Below, in pieces: positions 7,923 to 62,168 of a DNA stretch of 64,000 nucleotides (positions are counted from its first letter, which is position 1; every line of letters starts with the position of its first letter). Source of the DNA: an uncultured Hydrogenophaga sp. (lineage in GTDB: Bacteria > Pseudomonadota > Gammaproteobacteria > Burkholderiales > Burkholderiaceae_C); assembly GCA_964396895.1 (NCBI GenBank), contig CAYNGJ010000015.1, positions 33,831 to 97,830 on the forward strand, given 5' to 3'. The notes beneath the pieces are model-generated. The model did no database searches and was not told the DNA's origin. It saw only the letters and a program-made list of their open reading frames with translations. The position numbers and the translations under genes are program-made.

Positions 7923-7944
7923 GGGGAATATCCCCATTTTTTTT
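7923..7944 (+). terminator. weak hairpin plus T8 run (possible intrinsic terminator)
   Basis: The sequence is GGGGAATATCCCC followed by ATTTTTTTT. The stem is only 5 bp, so support is weak. Confidence 0.3.
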
Positions 7945-7948
7945 GAGT

Positions 7949-7990
7949 AAAAAATGCCTCTAGCGCTTTGCTGGCATTGATTCAGTGCTA
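7949..7990 (+). repeat. AT-rich dispersed repeat, copy R1a (left arm of an inverted doublet)
   Basis: AAAAAATGCCTCTAGCGCTTTGCTGGCATTGATTCAGTGCTA. It shares the A5-GCCTCY-AGCGCTT ... AGCTA layout with the other copies. Confidence 0.85.
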
Positions 7991-8006
7991 TATATATTAA
8001 TATTTG

Positions 8007-8048
8007 TAGCTGACTGTTGTTATGCATAAAGCGCTGGATAGTGTTTTT
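8007..8048 (-). repeat. AT-rich dispersed repeat, copy R1b (right arm of an inverted doublet)
   Basis: The reverse complement reads AAAAACACTATCCAGCGCTTTATGCATAACAACAGTCAGCTA. It lies tail-to-tail with R1a across a 16-nt AT spacer. Confidence 0.85.
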
Positions 8049-8517
8049 ATGCTGATTTTCCGGGCTGAGGTGTGCTCGCCCCCATCGCCCCCCCGTAGCA
8101 CTTTTTGTACTTCTTGCCGCTGCTGCAGCGGCACGGGTCGTTGCGGCCCGGCATGGCAGGCTGGTAGGAGACGTCGTCGTCCAGCGTCGTCACGGGGGTG
8201 TCCAGCGCGTGCCTCACGGCGTGCCAGCGGTGTTCCCGTCGTGGGCCGGTGTTGGCCGGGACACATCCACATCCTGCTCGAAGAGCGGGAGCGGCCGTTT
8301 GAAGTGGCTGACGCCGCGCTGTGCGCCCCACCACCAGTGGGTGCGCGCACGCCCGGTGGTGCAACGCGTGTGGCGTGAAGAAGGCCACCGATGACCCTGA
8401 CACACACCGTGAACATGACCGACCGCTTGCCCGACATCCTGACCCACAACCGTGTGCTCCTGCCTCACTCTGACCAACCGGGCAAGTGTGGCGCCAACAC
8501 AGGCCGGCTTGCCGCAC
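8047..8517 (-). CDS. SEC-C motif-containing ORF (N-terminal extent doubtful; possibly decayed)
   Basis: The C-terminus NDPCRCSSGKKYKKCYGG is a SEC-C type zinc motif. The upstream two-thirds of the ORF is Arg/Cys/Gly-rich and does not look protein-like. The stop codon lies inside repeat R1b. Confidence 0.3.
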   Translation of the reverse strand: MRQAGLCWRHTCPVGQSEAGAHGCGSGCRASGRSCSRCVSGSSVAFFTPHALHHRACAHPLVVGRTARRQPLQTAAPALRAGCGCVPANTGPRREHRWHAVRHALDTPVTTLDDDVSYQPAMPGRNDPCRCSSGKKYKKCYGGAMGASTPQPGKSA

Positions 8518-18057: not shown

Positions 18058-18067
18058 ATTTATTGAT

Positions 18068-18122
18068 AAAAATGGCACCTGTCGCTTACGAAATAAGCTT
18101 CAGGTGCTTTTTTATTGGTAGC
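18068..18122 (+). repeat. AT-rich repeat copy R3, folded as a hairpin plus T-run (a likely terminator for prpE)
   Basis: AAAAATGGCACCTGTCGCTTACGAAATAAGCTTCAGGTGCTTTTTTATTGGTAGC. The stem is GCACCTG/CAGGTGC (18075-18107) and T6 follows. Confidence 0.7.
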
Positions 18123-18263
18123 ATTGATGTGTCGTGATTTGCACGGATATGTTTCCCGGTGTGCGTAAGGGTTGCACCGATGTCCCAAGGGTAAGTGCCC
18201 GCATTCGGTCCGCTCGATGAGCGTTATGATGGTTGCTTATATATGTAACCCAGAGTTATCCAT

Positions 18264-18926: not shown

Positions 18927-21803
18927 ATGAACGAGACTAACAACGTCTACAGTGCCTTCAAAGGCAACTCGTACCTTTTCGGCGGTAACGCCCCCTACGT
19001 GGAAGAGATGTATGAAAACTACCTCTCCAACCCCGGCAGCGTTTCCGACACTTGGCGCAGTTATTTTGATGCGCTGCAAAATGTCCCGGCTGTGGATGGC
19101 ACCGATGCGCGCGACGTGCCTCACCTGCCCGTCATCAATGCCTTTGCCGAGCGCGCCAAACAAGGCACGACCCAGGTGGTGTTGGCCAGTCCAGATTCCG
19201 AGATGGGCCGCAAGCGGGTTTACACCCAACAGCTGATTGCCGCTTATCGCAACGTCGGTGCACGCTGGGCCGATCTGGACCCCCTGAAGCGCACGGAGCG
19301 TGAACACATTCCCGAGTTGGATCCCGCCTTCTATGGCCTGACCGACGCTGACATGGAAACCGTGTTCAACACCAGCAACACCTTCTTTGGCCGCGACACC
19401 ATGTCGCTGCGCGAGCTGATGAATGCGCTGCGTGAAACCTACTGCGGCACCATTGCGGCCGAGTACATGTACACCACCGACCAGAACCAAAAGCGCTGGT
19501 GGCAGGAAAAGCTCGAATCCATTCGCAGCAAGCCCAATTTCACGGCTGAGAAGAAAAAGCACATCCTGGGTCGTTTGACAGCCGCCGAGGGTCTGGAGCG
19601 TTTTCTTCACACCAAATACGTGGGGCAAAAGCGCTTCTCGCTGGAAGGCGGCGAGAGCTTCATTGCCTCCATGGACGAGCTGATTCAGTCCGCCGGAGCC
19701 AAGGGCGTGCAGGAAATCGTGATCGGCATGGCCCACCGGGGCCGTTTGAACGTGCTCGTCAACACCCTGGGCAAGATGCCCAAGAACCTGTTTGCCGAGT
19801 TCGACCACACCGCCCCCGAAGACCTGCCCAGCGGTGATGTGAAGTACCACCAGGGTTTCAGCTCTGACGTGACCACACCCGGCGGTCCCGTTCACCTGAC
19901 GCTGGCGTTCAACCCTTCCCACTTGGAAATTGTCAACCCCGTGGTGGAGGGTTCGGTGCGCGCGCGCATGGACCGCCGTGGTGACCCATCAGGCAAGCAA
20001 GTGCTGCCCGTGTTGGTGCACGGTGACGCGGCCTTCGCAGGTCAGGGTGTGGTCATGGAAACGCTGGCTCTGGCCGAAACCCGTGGTTATTTCACGGGTG
20101 GCACGGTCCACTTGGTCATCAACAACCAAATTGGCTTCACCACATCCGACCCCCGTGACAGCCGCTCCACGCTGTACTGCTCGGACGTGGTCAAGATGAT
20201 CGAATCGCCGGTGTTGCACGTCAACGGCGACGACCCTGAGGCCGTGGTGTTGGCCACCCAGTTGGCACTGGAATTCCGCATGGAGTTCAAGAAAGACGTG
20301 GTGGTGGACATCGTTTGTTTCCGCAAGCTGGGCCACAACGAGCAGGACACCCCCTCGCTCACCCAGCCGCTGATGTACAAAAAGATTGCCGCCCACCCTG
20401 GCACCCGCAAGCTGTATGCGGACAAACTGGCGGCCCAAGGCATGGGCGACTCCCTGGGTGACGACATGTTCAAGGCTTACCGCGCTGACATGGACGCTGG
20501 TCGCCACACCGTTGACCCCGTGCTGACCAACTTCAAGAGCAAGTACGCGGTGGACTGGACACCCTACTTGGGCAAAAAGTGGACCGATGCGGGGGACACC
20601 GCCGTTCCACTGGCCGAGTGGAAACGCTTGGCCGAGCGCCTGACCACCATCCCCGGCAATGTCACACCCCACCAACTGGTGAAGAAGGTGTACGACGACC
20701 GTGCGGCCATGGGGCGTGGCGACATCCCCGTGGATTGGGGCATGGGTGAGCACATGGCATTCGCCTCGCTGGTGGCCAGCGGATACCCTGTGCGCTTGTC
20801 CGGTGAAGACTGCGGACGTGGCACCTTTACCCACCGGCACGCCGTGATTCACGACCAAAACCGTGAAAAGAGCGACGAAGGCACCTACATTCCGCTGCAA
20901 AATGTGGCCGAGAACCAGGCGCCGTTTGTGGTCATCGATTCCATCCTCTCTGAAGAAGCGGTGCTGGCATTTGAATACGGCTATGCGTCCAACGACCCCA
21001 ACACGCTGGTCATCTGGGAAGCGCAGTTTGGCGATTTCGTCAACGGCGCGCAGGTGGTGATTGACCAGTTCATTGCGTCGGGTGAGGTCAAGTGGGGTCG
21101 TGTGAACGGCATCACCCTCATGTTGCCGCACGGGTATGAAGGCCAGGGACCAGAGCACTCGTCAGCTCGCCTGGAGCGCTTCATGCAGCTGTCGGCCGAC
21201 ACCAACATGCAGGTGGTGCAGCCCACCACGGCCAGCCAGATCTTCCATGTGTTGCGCCGCCAGATGGTCCGTAACCTGCGCAAGCCCTTGGTCATCATGA
21301 CCCCCAAGTCGTTGCTTCGCAACAAGGATGCCACCTCCCCACTGTCCGAGTTCACCCGCGGTGCCTTCCAGACCGTGATCGGTGAAACCAATGCCGACGT
21401 GGTGAAAAAAGCCGACAAGGTCAAACGCATCGTGGTGTGTTCCGGCAAGGTGTATTACGACCTGGTCAAGAAGCGTGAAGAAAAGGGCGCGGACGATGTG
21501 GCGATTCTGCGTGTGGAGCAGCTCTACCCGTTCCCCCACAAGGTGTTTGCGTCCGAGTTGAAAAAGTACCCCAACGCCACCGAAGTCATGTGGTGTCAGG
21601 ACGAACCACAGAACCAGGGTGCATGGTTTTTTGTGCAGCACTACATCCATGAAAACATGCTTGAAGGCCAGAAGCTGGGCTATTCAGGCCGCGCATCCTC
21701 GGCATCGCCTGCCGTGGGTTATGCCCATCTCCACCAAGAACAGCAAAAAGCGCTGGTGGACGGCGCTTTCGGCAAGTTCAAAGGTTTTGTTCTGACCAAA
21801 TAA
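18927..21803 (+). CDS. sucA: 2-oxoglutarate dehydrogenase E1 component
   Basis: The 958-aa protein has the typical E1o N-terminus (..YLFGGNAPYVEEMYENYL) and is conserved throughout. Confidence 0.97.
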   Translation: MNETNNVYSAFKGNSYLFGGNAPYVEEMYENYLSNPGSVSDTWRSYFDALQNVPAVDGTDARDVPHLPVINAFAERAKQGTTQVVLASPDSEMGRKRVYTQQLIAAYRNVGARWADLDPLKRTEREHIPELDPAFYGLTDADMETVFNTSNTFFGRDTMSLRELMNALRETYCGTIAAEYMYTTDQNQKRWWQEKLESIRSKPNFTAEKKKHILGRLTAAEGLERFLHTKYVGQKRFSLEGGESFIASMDELIQSAGAKGVQEIVIGMAHRGRLNVLVNTLGKMPKNLFAEFDHTAPEDLPSGDVKYHQGFSSDVTTPGGPVHLTLAFNPSHLEIVNPVVEGSVRARMDRRGDPSGKQVLPVLVHGDAAFAGQGVVMETLALAETRGYFTGGTVHLVINNQIGFTTSDPRDSRSTLYCSDVVKMIESPVLHVNGDDPEAVVLATQLALEFRMEFKKDVVVDIVCFRKLGHNEQDTPSLTQPLMYKKIAAHPGTRKLYADKLAAQGMGDSLGDDMFKAYRADMDAGRHTVDPVLTNFKSKYAVDWTPYLGKKWTDAGDTAVPLAEWKRLAERLTTIPGNVTPHQLVKKVYDDRAAMGRGDIPVDWGMGEHMAFASLVASGYPVRLSGEDCGRGTFTHRHAVIHDQNREKSDEGTYIPLQNVAENQAPFVVIDSILSEEAVLAFEYGYASNDPNTLVIWEAQFGDFVNGAQVVIDQFIASGEVKWGRVNGITLMLPHGYEGQGPEHSSARLERFMQLSADTNMQVVQPTTASQIFHVLRRQMVRNLRKPLVIMTPKSLLRNKDATSPLSEFTRGAFQTVIGETNADVVKKADKVKRIVVCSGKVYYDLVKKREEKGADDVAILRVEQLYPFPHKVFASELKKYPNATEVMWCQDEPQNQGAWFFVQHYIHENMLEGQKLGYSGRASSASPAVGYAHLHQEQQKALVDGAFGKFKGFVLTK

Positions 21804-21872: not shown

Positions 21873-23132
21873 ATGGCTATCGTAGAAGTCAAAGTTCCAC
21901 AGCTGTCCGAGTCGATTGCGGAAGCGACCTTGCTGCAGTGGAAGAAAAAACCCGGTGATCTGGTGGCGGTCGATGAAATCCTCATCGAAATTGAGACCGA
22001 CAAGGTGGTGCTTGAAGTGCCCGCACCTTCCGCAGGCGTGTTGGGTGAAATCGTTGAGGGCGATGGCAGCACCGTCGCGTCCGAGCAGGTGATTGCCCGC
22101 ATCGACACCGATGGCAAAGGCGCCGTCGCGCCTGCCGCAGCCGCACCCGCTGCAGCAGCGCCCGCTCAAGCGGCGGCTGCAGCCCCCGCTGCTGCTGTCT
22201 CCAAGGCCGGTGTGGCCATGCCCGCAGCGGCCAAGCTGATCGCCGACAACCACCTGGTGGTGGGCTCTGTGCCCGGCACGGGCAAAGACGGCCGTGTGAC
22301 CAAGGGTGACGTGTTGGCCGCTGTGGCCGCCAATGCAACCAGGCCCGCTGCTGCAGCAGTCGCCATCCCCACGGGCGTGCCCACCAAGGCCTTGCCCCAG
22401 GTCACGGCCATTCCCACCCCCGACCTGGGTGACCGACCCCAGCAGCGCGTGGCCATGACACGCCTGCGTGCCCGCGTGGCCGAGCGTTTGCTGCAGTCCC
22501 AGGCCACCAACGCCATCCTGACCACGTTCAACGAGGTGAACATGGCGCCAGTGATGGACATGCGCAAAAAATTCCAGGACAAGTTCGAAAAAGAACACGG
22601 CTGCAAGCTGGGTTTCATGAGCTTTTTCGTGAAAGCCGCCGTGCATGCACTGAAGAAGTACCCCGTGCTGAACGCTTCGGTCGATGGCAACGACATCGTT
22701 TACCACGGCTTCTTCGACATCGGCATTGCCGTGGGCTCGCCACGCGGCTTGGTGGTGCCCATCCTGCGCAATGCCGACCAGATGAGCTTTGCCGACATCG
22801 AAAAGAAAATTGCCGAATACGGTCAGAAGGCCAAAGACGGCAAGTTGGGCATTGAAGAAATGACCGGTGGCACCTTCTCCATCTCCAATGGTGGCACCTT
22901 CGGCTCCATGCTGTCGACCCCCATCATCAACCCACCGCAGTCGGCCATTTTGGGCGTGCACGCCACCAAAGACCGTGCGGTGGTGGAGAACGGGCAGATC
23001 GTGATTCGTCCCATCAACTACCTGGCCATGAGCTACGACCACCGCATCATCGACGGTCGCGAAGCCGTGCTGGGCCTGGTGGCCATGAAGGAGGCGTTGG
23101 AAGATCCCTCGCGCCTGCTGTTCGGGATTTGA
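21873..23132 (+). CDS. sucB: dihydrolipoyllysine-residue succinyltransferase (E2o)
   Basis: It has a lipoyl domain ([15 protein letters not shown]), an Ala/Pro linker and the catalytic motif [13 protein letters not shown]. Confidence 0.97.
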
Positions 23133-23135
23133 TGC

Positions 23136-23187
23136 TTTTTAGGCATCTGGCGCTTACTGTTAAACAATAGTCAGCTACATTTTATTG
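23136..23187 (+). repeat. AT-rich repeat copy R4 (sucB-lpdA spacer)
   Basis: TTTTTAGGCATCTGGCGCTTACTGTTAAACAATAGTCAGCTACATTTTATTG. Confidence 0.75.
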
Positions 23188-23241
23188 CATATTTCCAGGC
23201 CGCCTTCAGCAATGGGGGTGGCCTGTTTTCAAGGTAATCAC

Positions 23242-36470: not shown

Positions 36471-37133
36471 ATGGCCCAAAGTCTCGATCTCGAAGAACAG
36501 GAACAGCTTGACCAGATCAAGCACTTCTGGAAACGCTACGGCAACCTCATCACCTGGGTGCTGCTGGCCGCCAGCGTGTCCTTTGCTGCGTGGAATGGCT
36601 GGCAGTTCTGGCAGCACAAGCAGGCCTCGGGCGCAGCCGTCCTGTTCGATGAAATCGAAAGGGCCGTGGCGGACAAGGACGCCACCCGCATGGAGCGCAC
36701 CCTGACTGACATGAAGGCGCAATTTGGCAGCACGGTCTATGCCCAGCAGGGGGCTTTGCTGGCTGCGCATGGCCTGTCCGCCGCAGGCGATGCCCCCAAA
36801 GCCCGGCAGGCCCTGGAATGGGCCGCCGGGCAAAACAAGGACGAAGGCCTGCAGGCGATTGCCCGCCTGCGTCTGGCGGGTTTGCTGATGGAAAATGGCA
36901 CCCCCGAAGAGGCCAAAAAGTCGCTGGAGGCGACCATGCCCACTGCCTTCGAGGGCCTGCTGGCGGATCGCCAGGGCGACCTGCACCTGCGGGCCGGTCA
37001 GTCTGACCAGGCCCGTCAAGCCTACCTCAAGGCCTACCAACTGCTGGCCGACACCACGGAGTACCGTCGCCTGGTGGAAATCAAGCTCAACGCACTGGGC
37101 GTGGACCCCACACCGGCCGCCGCCAAGTCATGA
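36471..37133 (+). CDS. YfgM-family membrane-anchored TPR-like protein
   Basis: The N-terminus EEQEQLDQIKHFWKRYGNLITWVLLAA is followed by a TM segment. It occupies the conserved position between hisS and bamB. Confidence 0.8.
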   Translation: MAQSLDLEEQEQLDQIKHFWKRYGNLITWVLLAASVSFAAWNGWQFWQHKQASGAAVLFDEIERAVADKDATRMERTLTDMKAQFGSTVYAQQGALLAAHGLSAAGDAPKARQALEWAAGQNKDEGLQAIARLRLAGLLMENGTPEEAKKSLEATMPTAFEGLLADRQGDLHLRAGQSDQARQAYLKAYQLLADTTEYRRLVEIKLNALGVDPTPAAAKS

Positions 37134-38284
37134 CCCATCATAATTTGAGGAAAAATATGCCTCTAGCGCTTATATATAAAGGCTTTTCAGCTATTGTTAT
37201 TGCAAGCGCCTTGGTGGCATGCTCCTCATCGGGCAACCGACCCAAGCCAGCCGAGCTGACCCCTTTGCTGCCCATGATGTCGGTGCGCCAGGTTTGGGTG
37301 AACCCGGTGGGCGCCAGTGCCACCCCCATGACGCTCTCGGTGAACGGTGACCGCGTGTCCGTCGCCTCCGGCAACGGTACCGTGGCCCAGGTGGATGTGA
37401 ACACCGGTGCCGATGTCTGGCGCGTGGTCTTGGGCACGCCGCTGTCTGCGGGCGTCGGTTCTGATGGCCACATGGCCGCAGTCGTCAGCCAACGCAACGA
37501 CCTGATTGCGCTGGTGGCGGGCAAAGAAGTGTGGCGCCAGCGCTTGCCCTCGGCCGCCTACACCGCGCCATTGGTGGCCGGGCAACGGGTGTTTGTGCTG
37601 GGCGCAGACCGCTCTGTCACCGCGTTTGACGGCAACTCAGGCGCCCGTTTGTGGACCCAGTCCCGCACTGGCGAACCGCTGGTGCTTCGCCAGTCTGGCG
37701 TGCTGCTCGCGGTGGGCGACACACTGGTGGCGGGTTTGGGTGGCCGCATGGTTGGATTCAACCCCAACAACGGCAACACCCGCTGGGACGTGCAGCTCGC
37801 CGTGCCCAAAGGTGCCAATGACATCGAGCGCATGGTGGATTTGGTGGGCCCCATCAGCCGCGCTGGCAATGAGGTCTGCGCGCGCGCTTTCCAGACCGCA
37901 ATTGCCTGCGTCGACGCCCAGCGTGGTCGCCTGAAATGGACACAAGCCGCCGATGGCCGCAGTGGCCTGGGCGGAGACGAGCGCTGGCTGTTTGGTGCTG
38001 AGTCTGATGGGCGAGTCGTCGCTTGGCAGCGCGACACTGGCCAAAAGGCTTGGACATACTCTGGTCTGCTGCACCGTAACGCCCTCAGCCCCTTGCTGCT
38101 GGGCCGCTCACTGGCCACTGCAGACGGGTTCGGTTTTATTCACCTGCTGTCCCGGGAAGACGGCAGTCCCATGGCCCGCCTGACCACCGATGGTTCCCCC
38201 ATCCACACCGCCCCTGTGCTGGCCGGTGACACCCTGCTGGCCCTCACGCAAAATGGCAATATGTTTGCCTGGCGTCCACAATAA
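37130..38284 (+). CDS. bamB: outer membrane protein assembly factor BamB
   Basis: It has a lipoprotein signal peptide (..IASALVACSS) and PQQ-like beta-propeller repeats. The start is ATG 37130 (ATGA overlap with yfgM) or ATG 37157. Confidence 0.92.
   Translation: MTHHNLRKNMPLALIYKGFSAIVIASALVACSSSGNRPKPAELTPLLPMMSVRQVWVNPVGASATPMTLSVNGDRVSVASGNGTVAQVDVNTGADVWRVVLGTPLSAGVGSDGHMAAVVSQRNDLIALVAGKEVWRQRLPSAAYTAPLVAGQRVFVLGADRSVTAFDGNSGARLWTQSRTGEPLVLRQSGVLLAVGDTLVAGLGGRMVGFNPNNGNTRWDVQLAVPKGANDIERMVDLVGPISRAGNEVCARAFQTAIACVDAQRGRLKWTQAADGRSGLGGDERWLFGAESDGRVVAWQRDTGQKAWTYSGLLHRNALSPLLLGRSLATADGFGFIHLLSREDGSPMARLTTDGSPIHTAPVLAGDTLLALTQNGNMFAWRPQ
37151..37202 (+). repeat. AT-rich repeat copy R5, lying inside the bamB signal-peptide coding region
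   Basis: AAAAATATGCCTCTAGCGCTTATATATAAAGGCTTTTCAGCTATTGTTATTG is translated as (K)NMPLALIYKGFSAIVI. Confidence 0.85.
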
Positions 38285-46425: not shown

Positions 46426-46433
46426 TTTTTAAC

Positions 46434-46483
46434 AAAAAGTGCACTCAGCGCTTTATTTATAAGCATTGTTAGCTACTTATTTT
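46434..46483 (+). repeat. AT-rich repeat copy R6 (purA-PRTase spacer)
   Basis: AAAAAGTGCACTCAGCGCTTTATTTATAAGCATTGTTAGCTACTTATTTT runs directly into the GGAG RBS of the next gene. Confidence 0.85.
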
Positions 46484-46493
46484 GGAGTAAGTC

Positions 46494-47018
46494 ATGTTGA
46501 CTGAAGACGGCAAGCATCTGTACGTGTCTTACGACGAGTACCACAACCTCATCGAGAAACTGGCACTCCGAATCCACCAGTCGGACTGGGAGTTCGACAC
46601 CATCCTGTGCCTGGCCCGCGGTGGCATGCGCCCGGGTGACATCCTCAGCCGGATTTTTGACAAACCCCTGGCCATCATGTCCACCAGCTCCTATCGCGCC
46701 GACGCCGGTACCGTGCAAGGCCGGTTGGACATTGCGCGCTTCATCACCACCCCCAAGGGCGAAATCGCGGGCAAGGTGCTGCTGGTGGACGACTTGGCCG
46801 ACACTGGTCACACCCTGCAGGCGGTCATCAACACCCTGAAAAACCACTATGAGCCCATCACCGAGTTGCGCAGCGCCGTGATCTGGACCAAGGGTGTCTC
46901 GACCTTCACGCCCGACTACTCGGTGGAATTCCTCCCCACCAACCCCTGGATTCACCAGCCTTTTGAAGGCTACGACAGCCTGCGCCCCGCCGCATTGCTG
47001 GAAAAGTGGAAGCTCTGA
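46494..47018 (+). CDS. phosphoribosyltransferase (Gpt-like purine PRTase)
   Basis: It has the VLLVDDLADTGHTL PRPP-binding motif and LARGGMRPG. Confidence 0.8.
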   Translation: MLTEDGKHLYVSYDEYHNLIEKLALRIHQSDWEFDTILCLARGGMRPGDILSRIFDKPLAIMSTSSYRADAGTVQGRLDIARFITTPKGEIAGKVLLVDDLADTGHTLQAVINTLKNHYEPITELRSAVIWTKGVSTFTPDYSVEFLPTNPWIHQPFEGYDSLRPAALLEKWKL

Positions 47019-54981: not shown

Positions 54982-57633
54982 TCAGGGCAACACCTGCATT
55001 GACTGGGTCCACTGCGTGGGCTGCAGCTGCAAGGCGCGGTATTGCACCTTGGCCCAGGTGGTGGACATGTCGCGGTAGCGCGGTGACCACACGTTGCCGC
55101 TCTGGCCCGTTTGGTAGATGAATGCGCTGTTGTCCAGGTCGGCCAAGTCGTACACCGCGCGCAGCGATGCGGCGTGCCGGTTGGCGTAGGGCTGTGCCGG
55201 GTTGTCCAGCTGGAATTGACCCACGTTGACCGTGAAGGTGTCGCCCCCAGTGGGCACACTGACCTCGAACGCCGGTGCCAGCGCCTTGACGTTACTGAAC
55301 GGTTGGTGTTTAGACACCGCGGGGTGGGCTTGCCCCCAGCGCCATTGATCCACACGGGGGCCGTGCCGGGTCTGCAATTCCGTCAATGCAGTGCTCAGCG
55401 CCCGTGAGGACGCTTCGGCACAACCGCCCTCCCCGCACCAAAAGCCATCGTTGCGGGCCAACGCGTCTTCCATGGCGGTGCGGAAATGGCGCTTGCCGTA
55501 GAGGGACTTGGTCCGTGCCTCGCCCAGTGTGCGGACCAACGCTTGCCGTGTGAACACGTCCACCCATGCGGTGAAGATCAGGGGTGCGGCGTGGTCGGCC
55601 CGCATCACGCCGTCAAAGTGGGCCAAGGCCTGTTGCGCGGCGACGGCCAAGGGGTGGTCGGAAGGGGTGTTTTGCAACACCGGCAACAGCTTCAAAGTGG
55701 CCAGGGAGAGCTCATCGGCTTGCAAGGCCTGCATGGACTGCCGCGTGTGGCGGGGGGTGGCCGCCAGCAGGGCCTCAATGCGCTGCTGGCGGTGGGGGTG
55801 CGTCCAGTCCTGGGTGATGAAGTGCGGGTAGTCGGAGCCGTGGATGCGCTGGTTGGCGGTGGCCAGCCAGCCCCGCTGCTGCGCTTGGGCAGAGGCCGCC
55901 CGCTGGGCCGCCGCCACTGCCGGGCTGGTGCCGGGGGTGAATGCCGGTGTTGACGGTTCGCCCAGGCGGGTTTCGGGTGTGTCGGCGTAGGGTATCCAGC
56001 CCTGCCAGTCGTAACGCGCATCCCAGCCGGGCGACGGCGCCACACCCCGAATGTCATTGTCCGGGGCGCGAACGGGCACTTTGCCTGCGGCCTTGTAGGC
56101 CACGTGGCCCTGCACATCGGCCACCACCACGTTCTGCATGGGCGAGTGGTAATGGCGGTACGCGGCGAGCAGCTCATCCACACTGCGGGCGCGGTTGCCT
56201 TCCAGCCCGGCCAGCACCGTGTGGTTGTCGGCGTCCAGCGCGCTCCAGCGCAATGCCAACACGAACTGGCGGGTGTCCAGCAGTTCGGCGTGACTGGATT
56301 GGGCATCGCTGAGCACCGGGCCGTGGCGCGTGGTGCGCACCGTGTGGTGGACGTCGCCTTGCCCTTTGACGCGGATGGTTTCCTCGCGGGTGTCAAAGTC
56401 GGCCCAGGCGGCTGGCTGGCCGGGGGGCGCGGGCACGCGGTACTGCGCGGGGTTGGCGGGGTTGACTTGTTCCAGATACAGGTCTTGCACGTCAGGGGCG
56501 GTGTTGGTGAAGCCCCAGGCCAGGTGGGCATTGCGCCCCAGCACCACAAAAGGCAGGCCCGGCAGGGTGGCGCCCGTGACGTTCAGTTCGCCCTGCCCCG
56601 CCGCCGTCGGTGCCTGCAAACGTGCAAAGTACCAGACGGCAGGGGCGCTCAGGCCCAAGTGGGGGTCATTGGCCAACAATGGCCGCCCACTGTGGGTGCG
56701 CGAGCCCGCCACCACCCAGTTGTTGGAGCCCTTGCCATCCACCTCGCCCAGGGTGTGGGCCCAGTCGTTGACCGACTGCGCCAGTGTGGCGGACGCGGTG
56801 CGCGTCAATTTTGCATAAAAAGTGCCTCCAGCGCTTTCCCTTATTGGGTTGTCAGCTGCACTTTTTTTATTGAATTTGTCCGACTGATCGGCATACACGC
56901 CCAGGCCCCGGTACAGCTGGGCCAAGTCGGCGGTGGCGGCAGGCAGCTCGCCGGGGTAAGCCGGGAACAGTTGCCACAGGCGCTGGGTGTCCAACACCTG
57001 CAAGGCGGTGAGCCGCGCGAACTCGTTGCCCCAGTTGCCGCCCAGGTCCAGCGCCATCATGAGCGCCCAGCCCATGGCGTCGATGGGGGTCCAAAATTGG
57101 CCTTTTCGGGCGGCGCTGCGCGGGTCAATGCCCAGTGCCAGGAACTCGGGGGTGAGTGACTGGTGGCTGTGCGCCATGAAGGTGTTCACGCCATCGGCGT
57201 AGGCTTGCAGGGCGGCCTGGGCATGGGTAGGCAACCCTTGCCACTGGCGCTCGGCGGCCTGGGGCAAGCCGAGCGTGCGCAGCAGCTTGTCGGTGGGCAG
57301 GGTGGCAGGGCCCAGCACTTCCGACAACGTGCCATGCATCACCCGGCGGTTGAACTCCAGTTGCCACGCCCGTTCCTGCGCGTGCACCATGCCCAGGGTT
57401 TTGAAGGCATCGAGCGGGTTCTGGGCCAGGATGTGCGTGACGTCGGCGGGGTCGCGCCTGACCTGCACCGCTGCGCTCAAGCCCGGCAGATGCGCAACGC
57501 CCTGCATTTGGGGCAGGCTGCGCAGGGCATACACGGCGGTGGTGGCACCGGCGATCAGCGCGGCCGCGCCCAACAGGCCCATCACGGCCAGGGAAATTCG
57601 GGTCAGTCGGGTCAATCGGGTCAATCGGTTCAT
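54982..57633 (-). CDS. penicillin acylase family Ntn-hydrolase (AHL/beta-lactam acylase type)
   Basis: It has a signal peptide, an alpha-subunit region, a spacer, then G-SNNWVV (nucleophile Ser at residue 303 by my count) and ANDPHL. Confidence 0.92.
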   Translation of the reverse strand: MNRLTRLTRLTRISLAVMGLLGAAALIAGATTAVYALRSLPQMQGVAHLPGLSAAVQVRRDPADVTHILAQNPLDAFKTLGMVHAQERAWQLEFNRRVMHGTLSEVLGPATLPTDKLLRTLGLPQAAERQWQGLPTHAQAALQAYADGVNTFMAHSHQSLTPEFLALGIDPRSAARKGQFWTPIDAMGWALMMALDLGGNWGNEFARLTALQVLDTQRLWQLFPAYPGELPAATADLAQLYRGLGVYADQSDKFNKKSAADNPIRESAGGTFYAKLTRTASATLAQSVNDWAHTLGEVDGKGSNNWVVAGSRTHSGRPLLANDPHLGLSAPAVWYFARLQAPTAAGQGELNVTGATLPGLPFVVLGRNAHLAWGFTNTAPDVQDLYLEQVNPANPAQYRVPAPPGQPAAWADFDTREETIRVKGQGDVHHTVRTTRHGPVLSDAQSSHAELLDTRQFVLALRWSALDADNHTVLAGLEGNRARSVDELLAAYRHYHSPMQNVVVADVQGHVAYKAAGKVPVRAPDNDIRGVAPSPGWDARYDWQGWIPYADTPETRLGEPSTPAFTPGTSPAVAAAQRAASAQAQQRGWLATANQRIHGSDYPHFITQDWTHPHRQQRIEALLAATPRHTRQSMQALQADELSLATLKLLPVLQNTPSDHPLAVAAQQALAHFDGVMRADHAAPLIFTAWVDVFTRQALVRTLGEARTKSLYGKRHFRTAMEDALARNDGFWCGEGGCAEASSRALSTALTELQTRHGPRVDQWRWGQAHPAVSKHQPFSNVKALAPAFEVSVPTGGDTFTVNVGQFQLDNPAQPYANRHAASLRAVYDLADLDNSAFIYQTGQSGNVWSPRYRDMSTTWAKVQYRALQLQPTQWTQSMQVLP
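56817..56868 (+). repeat. AT-rich repeat copy R9, translated in frame (antisense orientation) inside the acylase spacer peptide
   Basis: AAAAAGTGCCTCCAGCGCTTTCCCTTATTGGGTTGTCAGCTGCACTTTTTTT lies within the AT-rich patch 56808-56880, which encodes DKFNKKSAADNPIRESAGGTFYAKL. Confidence 0.85.
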
Positions 57634-57668: not shown

Positions 57669-58673
57669 TCAGTCCCAAAACATCAGGGCTTCTTTGCCCA
57701 TGAGGTGCAGTTCCACCGGTTTGCCCACAGGCAACAGCACCTTGGTGGGCACATGGCCAAAAGGCAGCTCGCCCAAAACGGGCACTCCGTGCGGACACCT
57801 GTCGGTGGGCGCCGACAGTTGTTGGCGCAACCAGTCGGTGACGGAGCGGAGCTTGAACCCACGGTCGTGGGGCACGGGTTTGTACTGGGTGAACTGGCCC
57901 ATCAGCACGGCTTGCTGCTGTCCCAGGATGCCCGCATACAACAATTGGGTGAGCATGCGCTCCACCCGGTAGGGGTGCTCGCCCACGTCTTCCAGAAACA
58001 GAATGCCGCCGGGCACCGAGGGCATCCACGGCGTACCCACCAGCGAACACAGCACCGCGAGGTTGCCGCCCCACAGCACGGCGTTGTGGATGCTGACCGC
58101 GGGCTCGTCGCCGGTGGCCACGGGGCGGTCGTGTTTAGGCACCCGCCAACCCGTGCCCTCGCCCAGGCCACAGAGCAGGTCTTCGAAGCAGGATTCCATG
58201 ATGTCATCGGGCACCGGGGCTTCGTCCGTGCCCAGTGCCGGGTCGGCACCAAAGTCTTCCCCCAGCGCCGGACCAGCCCAGGTCACGGCCCCCTGCCCCA
58301 AGTCGCCTTGGGTGCGTTGCCGGTGCGCCATCAGGCCGAGTTGCAAAGCGGTGAAATCACTCAGGCCCACCCAGTGCATGCCCGCTTCGATGGATTGGGC
58401 CACCGCGTCAAACGGGAGTTGCGGCAACAGGCGGGTGAGGCCGTAGCCACCTCGGGAAATGAGGGCCACATCGGCCTGGCTGGCGGCGGCGCGGGCAATG
58501 GCGGCCAGCCTGACCTCGTCGGGACCGGCAAACCGCTGGTGGCTGCGCAGGGCGTCGGCATCCACCTCGACGGTGTGGCCCAGGGTCTTCAGCCTGTTGA
58601 TGCCCCGGCGAAACGCCGTTTTGTCGCGCACGGCACCGGAGGGGGAGTAGATGTAAATGTGTTTGTGGGTCAC
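57669..58673 (-). CDS. ldcA: LD-carboxypeptidase (S66 family)
   Basis: GTG start at 58673 (GTGA overlap with the upstream gene). Supporting sequence is IYIYSPSG, ISRGGYGLTRLL, GLSDFTAL and LPFGHV. Confidence 0.85.
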   Translation of the reverse strand: MTHKHIYIYSPSGAVRDKTAFRRGINRLKTLGHTVEVDADALRSHQRFAGPDEVRLAAIARAAASQADVALISRGGYGLTRLLPQLPFDAVAQSIEAGMHWVGLSDFTALQLGLMAHRQRTQGDLGQGAVTWAGPALGEDFGADPALGTDEAPVPDDIMESCFEDLLCGLGEGTGWRVPKHDRPVATGDEPAVSIHNAVLWGGNLAVLCSLVGTPWMPSVPGGILFLEDVGEHPYRVERMLTQLLYAGILGQQQAVLMGQFTQYKPVPHDRGFKLRSVTDWLRQQLSAPTDRCPHGVPVLGELPFGHVPTKVLLPVGKPVELHLMGKEALMFWD

Positions 58674-59269
58674 GGTGAGCTGCCTTTGCGTTGTTTGACG
58701 CTGTTGAGTCGTTGGCGGCGGCGCCAGCGGGTGCGGGCCACCCAGATCAGGCTGGTCAGGGCGTAAACCACCAGCCCACCGGTCACGGCGAAGATGACCA
58801 GCCCCACCACCAGGGGTTTGCCCACGCCGGTGAGGTAGGTCCAAAAGCGCGCCAACTGCTGGCCCAGGCTGCGGGCCTCCTGCTTCACCGGGTCAGGCGC
58901 TTGGGCCAGTACCTCTTGGGCGTTTTGCGCCACCGTGGGGGGCTCGCCCACCAGCTTCACCCCCAGCTTGTAGGCGGCGTAGTACACCGGTCCAAAGGTC
59001 ACGGGGTTGGTCACCAGGGTGCTGCCCATGGCCACTGGCAGGTTGGCCCGCAGCAGCACGGCGGTGGCAGCAGAAAAGGGGATTTGCGCCACCGGAATCA
59101 AAAAGCCAAAAAAGATGCCAATGGCCAGGCCCAGTGCCAGGCCCTTGCGGCTCATGTGCCACAGGCGGGGGTGGTACAGGGCGGGGCCCAGCCATTTCAA
59201 CCAGCGGTTGTGCTGAACACTTTCCCGCGTGGGCAGTTGTTTTTTGAGCCAGGCGTTCATGGGCGCCAA
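58670..59269 (-). CDS. DUF2062 domain membrane protein
   Basis: Supporting sequence is RKGLALGLAIGIFFGFLIPVAQIPFSAATAVLLRANLPVAMGSTLVTNPVTFGPVYY. Confidence 0.8.
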   Translation of the reverse strand: MAPMNAWLKKQLPTRESVQHNRWLKWLGPALYHPRLWHMSRKGLALGLAIGIFFGFLIPVAQIPFSAATAVLLRANLPVAMGSTLVTNPVTFGPVYYAAYKLGVKLVGEPPTVAQNAQEVLAQAPDPVKQEARSLGQQLARFWTYLTGVGKPLVVGLVIFAVTGGLVVYALTSLIWVARTRWRRRQRLNSVKQRKGSSP

Positions 59270-62050: not shown

Positions 62051-62092
62051 AAAATAGCCACCCAGCTATTGATGGATATGAATTTGTAGCTA
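62051..62092 (+). repeat. AT-rich repeat copy R10a (left arm of the second inverted doublet; diverged core)
   Basis: AAAATAGCCACCCAGCTATTGATGGATATGAATTTGTAGCTA. Confidence 0.65.
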
Positions 62093-62106
62093 TAAAATTA
62101 ATTGTA

Positions 62107-62149
62107 TAGCTGACCATTCAATGACCATAAGCGCCAGAGGCTGATTTTT
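62107..62149 (-). repeat. AT-rich repeat copy R10b (right arm of the second inverted doublet)
   Basis: The reverse complement reads AAAAATCAGCCTCTGGCGCTTATGGTCATTGAATGGTCAGCTA. It is separated from R10a by a 14-nt AT spacer. Confidence 0.85.
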
Positions 62150-62168
62150 CGTATTTTTTGACGGGACA

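Follow-up and report, generated by a model that had tools for sequence, protein, structure and literature searches.

The penicillin-acylase-family gene in the 64-kb stretch of betaproteobacterial DNA analyzed here (contig CAYNGJ010000015.1, positions 33,831 to 97,830; hereafter the window) carries in frame a copy of a short AT-rich repeat that is dispersed in this stretch and in the genomes of related Comamonadaceae. We consider it probable that this copy is old and vertically inherited, and that it has been tolerated through the combination of a single open frame in the repeat and a position in a disordered, probably discarded, part of the linker between the alpha and beta subunits of the enzyme. 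The simplest reading for this genome is that of a tolerated passenger rather than a working part of the enzyme.

The proposed course of events begins with entry of a copy of ~60–70 nt into the hypervariable first half of the alpha–beta linker. This insertion would predate the split of the window's lineage from its nearest relatives, and probably also the split from Polaromonas. It would have survived because its orientation and phase are the combination that is usually free of stops in the repeat family, and because the segment is disordered, with length and sequence barely constrained. If the enzyme matures as its family does, the precursor would cleave itself between Gly302 and Ser303 and the linker would then be trimmed, with most or all of the repeat-encoded peptide being lost or else left dangling as a disordered tail of the alpha subunit.

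A repeat copy in the alpha–beta linker of an acylase precursor

The copy coincides with the sole AT-rich stretch of the acylase reading frame. In 70-nt windows, the GC content of this frame lies between 0.56 and 0.80 throughout, except over positions 56790–56929, and reaches its minimum of 0.46 at 56825–56894. The plus strand of the patch reads AAAAAGTGCCTCCAGCGCTTTCCCTTATTGGGTTGTCAGCTGCACTTTTTTT, and its antisense translation is ...SDKFNKKSAADNPIRESAGGTFYAKL..., with neither a stop nor a frameshift. A 20-mer core of the patch has four matches at three or fewer mismatches in the window, compared to 0.00 expected from shuffled sequence. A profile built from Polaromonas sequences alone, with no window sequence in it, matches positions 56812–56857 (E = 0.0024 in a search of 1.6 Mb), and the repeat match is therefore independent of the choice of window copies. 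A 9-bp inverted repeat lies at the termini of the copy, and the stem predicted from it is weak (z = −2.1 on the plus strand and z = −0.5 on the mRNA strand). A preliminary description of this DNA had already taken the AT-rich patch for a dispersed-repeat copy read antisense without a stop or frameshift, as these results bear out, and its placement of the encoded segment at residues 251–275 was correct to within one residue, the peptide running from D252 to L276 by our count.

The product of the host gene is assigned to the S45 family of N-terminal-nucleophile (Ntn) hydrolases (MEROPS S45) by its profile match, its nucleophile serine, and its modeled alpha/beta heterodimer fold. The Pfam profile PF01804 (Penicil_amidase) covers residues 56–874 with E = 6e-198, the best solved relative is the D-succinylase 7eby (phmmer 2e-59; Foldseek TM 0.81–0.83), and Foldseek also matches the model to cephalosporin and penicillin acylases. 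The predicted nucleophile, Ser303 (the Ser of GSNNW), shows no variation among 120 homologues and is aligned to the first residue of many solved beta chains; its number agrees with the one that the preliminary description had given. The AlphaFold model, built from a 120-sequence alignment, has a mean predicted local distance difference test score (pLDDT) of 88.8 and a predicted template-modeling score of 0.92; it superseded an earlier run with 27 close homologues, in which pLDDT was 62 and residues 251–332 all scored below 50, leaving the linker indistinguishable. At the N-terminus of the precursor, MNRLTRLTRLTR holds three tandem 9-nt units (CGATTGACC, CGATTGACC, and CGACTGACC; 57598–57624, minus strand), which directly precede the hydrophobic anchor or signal segment.

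Alignments and model together place the repeat-encoded peptide in the unconstrained first half of the alpha–beta linker, and the claim that the segment lies between the alpha subunit and the nucleophile serine is upheld by both. The segment occupies the positions 27–51 residues before Ser303, past the last conserved helix of the alpha subunit. The 120 homologues are conserved as far as Y247 and again from about residue 277 through Ser303, with hypervariable length and sequence in between; the whole linker between LYxxLGVY and GKGSNNW measures 34–69 residues in 120 aligned proteins and 81 aligned loci. In the AlphaFold model, residues 251–280 have the lowest block confidence of the entire chain (means of 60, 54, and 63), the sole stretch with pLDDT below 50 is 268–271, and residues 251–280 are modeled as coil between helices 237–244 and 278–293. 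Alignments to solved alpha chains stop at residue 213–215, and the unaligned remainder of those chains is 36–49 residues long, which would put the C-terminus of the alpha subunit roughly at residue 251–262. The layout resembles that of penicillin G acylase, cephalosporin acylase, and MacQ, in which a signal or anchor segment is followed by alpha subunit, spacer, and beta subunit, with Ser as the first beta residue (PMC11241749, PMC5566955). Spacer length varies widely among S45 Ntn-hydrolases (PMC11241749, PMC5566955), cephalosporin acylase mutants with a shortened spacer still mature (PMC5566955), and we found no report in the literature of a mobile or dispersed repeat inside an Ntn-hydrolase spacer.

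Inheritance of the copy and the open frame of the repeat

We compared the acylase gene with its orthologues in 80 species-representative loci of ~20 kb each (numbered L001 onward). The closest relative, L081, is 88% identical in amino acids and 84% in nucleotides, and its gene is colinear with that of the window, of the same length and without a gap. Across the repeat, identity drops to 58–65%; thus, the repeat segment evolves faster than the gene that holds it. The L081 copy is the more decayed of the two, with consensus bases lost and AGCGCTGGAGGC changed to AGAGATGGAAGC. The preliminary description had proposed an indel relative to orthologues as a sign of insertion, and against the closest orthologues this expectation failed. 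The homologous, partly decayed copy found there instead indicates an old shared insertion rather than a recent private one.

The family profile matches the acylase linker in 29 of the 80 loci, with identical site, orientation, and frame in all of them. These loci are nearly all from Polaromonas, with L002 and L079 from the window's own clade in addition, and a typical repeat-encoded peptide in these relatives is DAIKTGAAGARGESAGGLFD. Three other members of the window's clade (L001, L003, and L005) have decayed versions of the copy, and L002, at 69% amino-acid identity, has the copy-specific loop ACC(C)AATA..AAGCGCTGG in common with the window. Linkers with a copy average 51 residues and a GC content of 0.55, and those without one average 40 residues and 0.68. 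Hydrogenophaga orthologues belong to the second group: their linkers are shorter and GC-rich, no family match occurs anywhere in the Hydrogenophaga loci, and a search of their linkers for a repeat remnant gave no profile match better than E of ~1. Orthologues that keep the segment in genomes free of the family had been named beforehand as evidence against an insertion; the Hydrogenophaga linkers are without it. A faint likeness of a few Hydrogenophaga sequences to 'KT[ST]..AP' or AAAAC..GCTGC..GGCGC was considered as a trace of common ancestry and is insufficient for such a claim.

Presence of the acylase copy also goes with presence of the family in the surrounding DNA. Other copies were found in the flanks of 24 of the 29 loci with an acylase copy and of 1 of the 51 loci without one (Fisher p = 2e-14, kinship being ignored in this comparison); the single match among the latter, which total 1.0 Mb and come mostly from Hydrogenophaga, is in L006. 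The family is frequent in Polaromonas and in the Comamonadaceae/Burkholderiaceae lineage of the window itself.

Occurrence in frame is general for this family, comprising the acylase gene, an LD-carboxypeptidase gene, two further genes in relatives, and a signal peptide in the window. Among 87 family profile matches in the related loci, 33 lie inside long open frames with high GC content at third codon positions (GC3). The LD-carboxypeptidase (Peptidase_S66) gene is a neighbor of the acylase gene, and its in-frame copy in relatives, which reads for example PSAIKEGAASAIPARAGGVFS, has the orientation and frame seen in the acylase and falls in the interdomain linker between the N- and C-domains of Peptidase_S66. 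It is present in Polaromonas, L002, L003, and L006, and absent from the window (57669..58844, minus strand), L081, L001, and Hydrogenophaga. Of the six frames in full-length non-coding copies, only one is as a rule open (stop-free in 10 of 12 copies, compared to 0–4 of 12 for each other frame), and this is the frame used in both enzymes; the window's non-coding copies show a like tendency in it (...IA.....SARGxF). Genic copies replace the consensus ..TTTAATAGC.., which encodes Leu-Ile, by ..AACAGGAGC.., ..AGAAGGAGC.., or ..TTCAGGAGC.. (Thr-Gly, Glu-Gly, or Ser-Gly), a change that looks like an adjustment towards a soluble linker.

The signal peptide belongs to a BamB-like lipoprotein gene (37130–38284, plus strand; Pfam PQQ_2/BamB, E = 3e-61), which reads the repeat in the orientation opposite to that of the acylase. 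A repeat copy contains the likely start codon of this gene together with the n- and h-regions of its signal peptide (MPLALIYKGFSAIVIAS..LVAC), and the repeat may have supplied part of this signal peptide. Additional copies within long, high-GC3 frames of other genes occur on the minus strand at 21504–21558 in L039, 19874–19929 in L035, and 5376–5420 in L029; those of L039 and L035 read VLSKLELWAQAAQGLG.DF.

Evidence against a single discarded insertion, and alternative explanations

Several observations weigh against an old insertion that was made once, inherited vertically, and is discarded with the spacer. In a neighbor-joining tree computed from the protein minus its linker, the sister group of the window's clade is the Hydrogenophaga clade, which is free of the repeat, with Polaromonas outside both, so that a single insertion needs a loss in Hydrogenophaga and the only other course is two insertions. 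Compared to repeat-free linkers, the net gain in length is only ~11–16 residues where ~20 would be expected, and later deletions must therefore be assumed. L006 has no acylase copy and a near-consensus copy in its LD-carboxypeptidase gene, and the window and L081 show the reverse; because presence in the two genes is opposite, gains and losses are taken to be ongoing. No target-site duplication is recognizable around the acylase copy. The end of the alpha subunit and the removal of the peptide are extrapolated and drawn from family analogy, and in the Comamonadaceae acylase MacQ, spacer density remains inside the mature particle (PMC5566955). Finally, conservation of synonymous sites in the Polaromonas copies, described below, fits ill with a purely neutral passenger.

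The first alternative concerns the fate of the peptide, which may stay on the mature alpha subunit as a C-terminal tail or be kept as a spacer inside the enzyme. The MacQ structure is a precedent for such retention, as is the activity of an uncleaved MacQ mutant (PMC5566955). In the present enzyme, the extrapolated end of the alpha subunit overlaps the start of the repeat-encoded segment. S45 acylases in general, however, release the spacer (PMC11241749; PMC5566955 introduction), and by analogy with them the peptide would be cut out and be absent from the mature enzyme. Its predicted disorder and its poor conservation in the window's lineage also argue against a retained element, and we consider retention somewhat unlikely.

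A second alternative is that the repeat was inserted independently more than once, or that old copies were overwritten, such that the copies of the window's clade and those of Polaromonas are not orthologous. The common site would then reflect a selection filter that only open-frame insertions into the linker pass, or an element that favors remnants of itself. Patchy presence in both genes, as seen in L006 compared to the window and L081, and the paraphyly of the repeat-bearing clades in the acylase tree are consistent with this explanation. The acylase copies of one Polaromonas group, P3, are moreover nearer to the non-coding copies of P3 (0.77) than to the acylase copies of groups P1 and P2 (0.61–0.63), and in L067, L074, and L075 an intergenic copy upstream has the variant GAAGCCCGATTTGAT in common with the acylase copy. 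The P3 pattern is equally explicable as retained ancestral sequence, however, and the extra similarity of copies from the same genome is not significant within clades (permutation; p = 0.08, 0.18, and 0.70). Repeated insertion must also contend with the identity of site, orientation, and frame in all 29 loci, with the colinearity of the window and L081, and with the copy-specific AAAACAGGAGCT, which Polaromonas P1–P3 and L002 have in common and which departs from the family consensus ATTTAATAGCT. On this balance, we judge repeated insertion to be unlikely. Concerted evolution by gene conversion with nearby copies was also considered; the P3 signal and two anecdotal shared variants are suggestive of it, the within-clade permutations are not significant, and we do not claim it.

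The third alternative arises from Polaromonas, in which the nucleotide sequence of the copy is unexpectedly stable. The 5′ block of the acylase copy, GCT ATC AAA ACA GGA GCT (GCTATCAAAACAGGAGCT), keeps its AT-ending, non-preferred codons unchanged across 20 orthologues from Polaromonas. Its GC3 is 0–0.13, compared to 0.8–0.9 for identical amino acids elsewhere in the gene, and among 764 seven-codon windows it stands in the top 4% by overall nucleotide identity and in the top 2.4% by third-position identity. The residues around it are the most variable of the protein, and the conservation contrasts with the fast decay of the copy in the window's lineage. These results hint at selection on nucleotide sequence, for which we reached no explanation. 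The copy could, for example, contain a protein-binding or promoter-like DNA site, or a feature of the mRNA by which translation is slowed between the alpha and beta parts, with the discardable linker being a place where such a signal can sit. Besides the unchanged codons amid hypervariable flanks, the frequent position of non-coding copies directly 5′ of start codons speaks for a function of this kind. Against it stand the divergence of the repeat in the window's own lineage, where it outpaces that of the gene, its decay or loss in many other lineages, the lack of a conserved structure in the family (−0.44 kcal/mol) or of an Rfam match, and the weakness of the hairpin on the mRNA strand (z = −0.5). 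Selection on the peptide AIKTGA together with a low local mutation rate could also account for the conservation, and a function of the nucleotide sequence seems quite unlikely. We give similarly little credence to the broader proposition that linkers of self-processing and multidomain enzymes serve as long-term safe harbors for such repeats, with the 5′ block of the acylase copy kept by nucleotide-level selection; if the synonymous-site conservation is what it appears to be, a nucleotide-level signal would be embedded inside a discarded peptide.

Chance likeness of an AT-rich, low-complexity linker to the repeat, for which it could be said that the strongly conserved part within the window is only ~20–25 nt of the copy, is refuted by the 20-mer matches, the independent profile, the near-consensus copies at the identical site in orthologues, and the strong association with family copies in the flanks.

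The repeat family and its relation to known elements

Copies in the window were found by listing all AT-rich islands and aligning them, which gave six clear copies, including that of the acylase gene, and one weaker, terminator-like copy (Table 1). The aligned copies have in common AAAAA..GCCTCYAGCGCTT..N13–15..TCAGCTA..TTTTATTG, and the element as a whole is AT-rich, ~60–70 nt long, and has the conserved blocks GCTAT..ATAGCTGC..GCGC..GGGCTGGAGGCC..ATTT. Run on 18 non-coding copies, RNAalifold gave a consensus of −0.44 kcal/mol in which no pair covaries, and hence no conserved secondary structure. Without a consensus RNA structure, the label 'palindromic element' is unjustified for the family as a whole; the 9-bp terminal stem is confined to the acylase copy of the window, and the other copies end in an A-run or T-run only. 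No Rfam 15 family matches the repeat at gathering or permissive thresholds, and nothing meaningful was matched at 56700–57000.

Table 1. Positions of the acylase gene, its linker, and the repeat copies. Positions are those of the window unless a locus number is given.
Feature	Position	Strand	Basis
Penicillin-acylase-family (MEROPS S45, Ntn-hydrolase) precursor, 883 aa	54982..57633	−	ORF list, Pfam, solved relatives
Codon of Ser303, predicted N-terminal nucleophile of the beta subunit	56725..56727	−	Alignment with solved beta chains
Conserved C-terminal linker part, residues 277–302 (...LAxxxxxWAxxLGxVxGKG), with predicted helix 278–293, up to the scissile bond	56728..56805	−	Alignments, model
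Hypervariable N-terminal part of the alpha–beta linker, residues 248–276	56806..56892	−	120 proteins, 81 loci
Dispersed AT-rich repeat copy in the acylase gene	56809..56877	+ (family orientation; acylase reads antisense)	nhmmer, 20-mer search, Polaromonas-built profile, GC minimum
Repeat-encoded peptide, codons D252–L276 (DKFNKKSAADNPIRESAGGTFYAKL; DKFNKK...AKL)	56806..56880	−	Translation
9-bp terminal inverted repeat of the acylase copy, left arm AAAAAGTGC	56817..56825	+	Sequence, predicted stem
9-bp terminal inverted repeat of the acylase copy, right arm GCACTTTTT	56858..56866	+	Sequence, predicted stem
Family copy, intergenic, apparently composite to ~8062	7942..8004	+	20-mer search, alignment, nhmmer
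Weaker terminator-like family member, membership less certain	18064..18125	+	Lowest nhmmer score of seven
Family copy	23129..23197	+	Alignment, nhmmer
Family copy overlapping start codon and signal peptide of the BamB-like lipoprotein gene	37144..37213	+	20-mer search, nhmmer
Family copy whose end directly precedes the ATG at 46494	46427..46493	+	20-mer search, nhmmer
Family copy, opposite orientation	62088..62153	−	Alignment, nhmmer
LD-carboxypeptidase copies in relatives	L039 7345–7399; L002 797–847; L006 6503–6550; many Polaromonas loci		
5′ block sites of the acylase copy	L027–L076 acylase linkers, e.g. L047 10654–10674		

The acylase copy is a new example of an already known phenomenon, the occurrence of dispersed repeats in frame as in Rickettsia and some other bacteria. 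In-frame insertion of small repeats into intact genes is given as a hallmark of the Rickettsia palindromic elements (RPE; Ogata et al. 2000) where these are summarized in two later papers (PMC10969869, PMC3733652). As outlined in those summaries, the RPE and the present family are alike in that a short dispersed repeat stands in frame in unrelated, apparently functional genes, with recurrence of the frame and of a recognizable peptide, and in that insertions occur where the fold tolerates them. By the same accounts, RPE are found in obligate intracellular alphaproteobacteria and measure ~150 bp in the case of RPE-1, whereas the present repeat is AT-rich, ~60–70 nt long, and found in free-living, GC-rich betaproteobacteria. 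It also has no conserved hairpin, and its likeness to the RPE so described is one of functional analogy, with homology not to be expected.

Repetitive extragenic palindromes (REPs) that lie within genes and encode 20–30 residues are catalogued for free-living bacteria (PMC3733652). As with the intragenic REPs tagged by GTAG or CGTC, the present family is otherwise intergenic, has members wholly inside open reading frames, and in some cases overlaps gene starts (PMC3733652). REPs, however, are GC-rich palindromes of 20–40 bp with a GTAG or CGTC tag and a link to RAYT transposases (PMC3733652), traits that are all missing from the present family in the DNA analyzed; its repeat is AT-rich, ~60–70 nt long, and has no conserved stem. 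The present family thus behaves like RPE and intragenic REPs, yet it has neither the palindrome nor the tag and is a member of neither group. Small non-autonomous elements such as intragenic MITEs (miniature transposable elements with inverted repeats) and ERIC can likewise fuse in frame with host reading frames (PMC10969869), and the acylase copy has a 9-bp terminal inverted repeat; unlike in MITEs, terminal inverted repeats are inconsistent across the family, and the acylase copy, an old insertion, has no clear target-site duplication.

Two sets of sequences had previously been reported from Comamonadaceae. A spaced pair of motifs, ATAGCT(N)22CAAAAG, has 125 copies in Polaromonas naphthalenivorans, 18 of them in genes, and GCTTAT(N)5AAGCG has 114 copies in Acidovorax ebreus; both were detected statistically only and are not described as elements (PMC5217627). 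The present family has blocks in common with them (ATAGCT; GCGCTTAT..ATAAGC) and is likewise mostly intergenic near gene ends, with a minority of copies in genes. The exact patterns are absent from the loci, except that two window copies fit the A. ebreus core when it is read in reverse complement, and we treat identity with these pairs as a lead only. The betaproteobacterial repeat element (BRE) also occurs in Polaromonas and other Comamonadaceae, with some copies in coding sequences (PMC3110155); identity with it was rejected, BRE being ~90 bp long, 69% GC, and often tandem (PMC3110155), compared to the patch at ~70 nt, a GC content of 0.46, and a single copy.

The acylase copy provides a clean, datable case of dispersed repeats entering protein-coding genes in free-living, GC-rich betaproteobacteria, with persistence only in one open frame and only in disordered linkers, namely the pro-peptide of the acylase and the interdomain linker of the LD-carboxypeptidase. 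For annotation, it follows that an AT-rich patch within a gene of such a genome does not have to mark a frameshift, an assembly error, or the boundary of a gene. The copy is also a natural experiment on the foreign sequence that an acylase spacer tolerates, which bears on the engineering of quorum-quenching and beta-lactam acylases.

Additional observations concern individual copies and their surroundings. Non-coding copies frequently end a few bases 5′ of a start codon, as does the window copy that stops before the ATG at 46494, and in Polaromonas they lie at similar sites 5′ of a tadA-like deaminase gene (L027 5216, L046 5295, and L067 5311); such positions suggest that the copies may act in 5′ leaders or be tolerated there. 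The copy at 7942–8062 has a normal left half, followed by TATATATATTAATATT and then by a second AGCTGA...AAAGCGCTGGA half in inverted order, an arrangement suggestive of two copies or of a nested insertion. The sole Rfam match in the window is the sucA RNA motif (RF01070; 18840–18921, plus strand; 82.5 bits, E = 3.5e-14), which sits upstream of apparent 2-oxoglutarate dehydrogenase genes.

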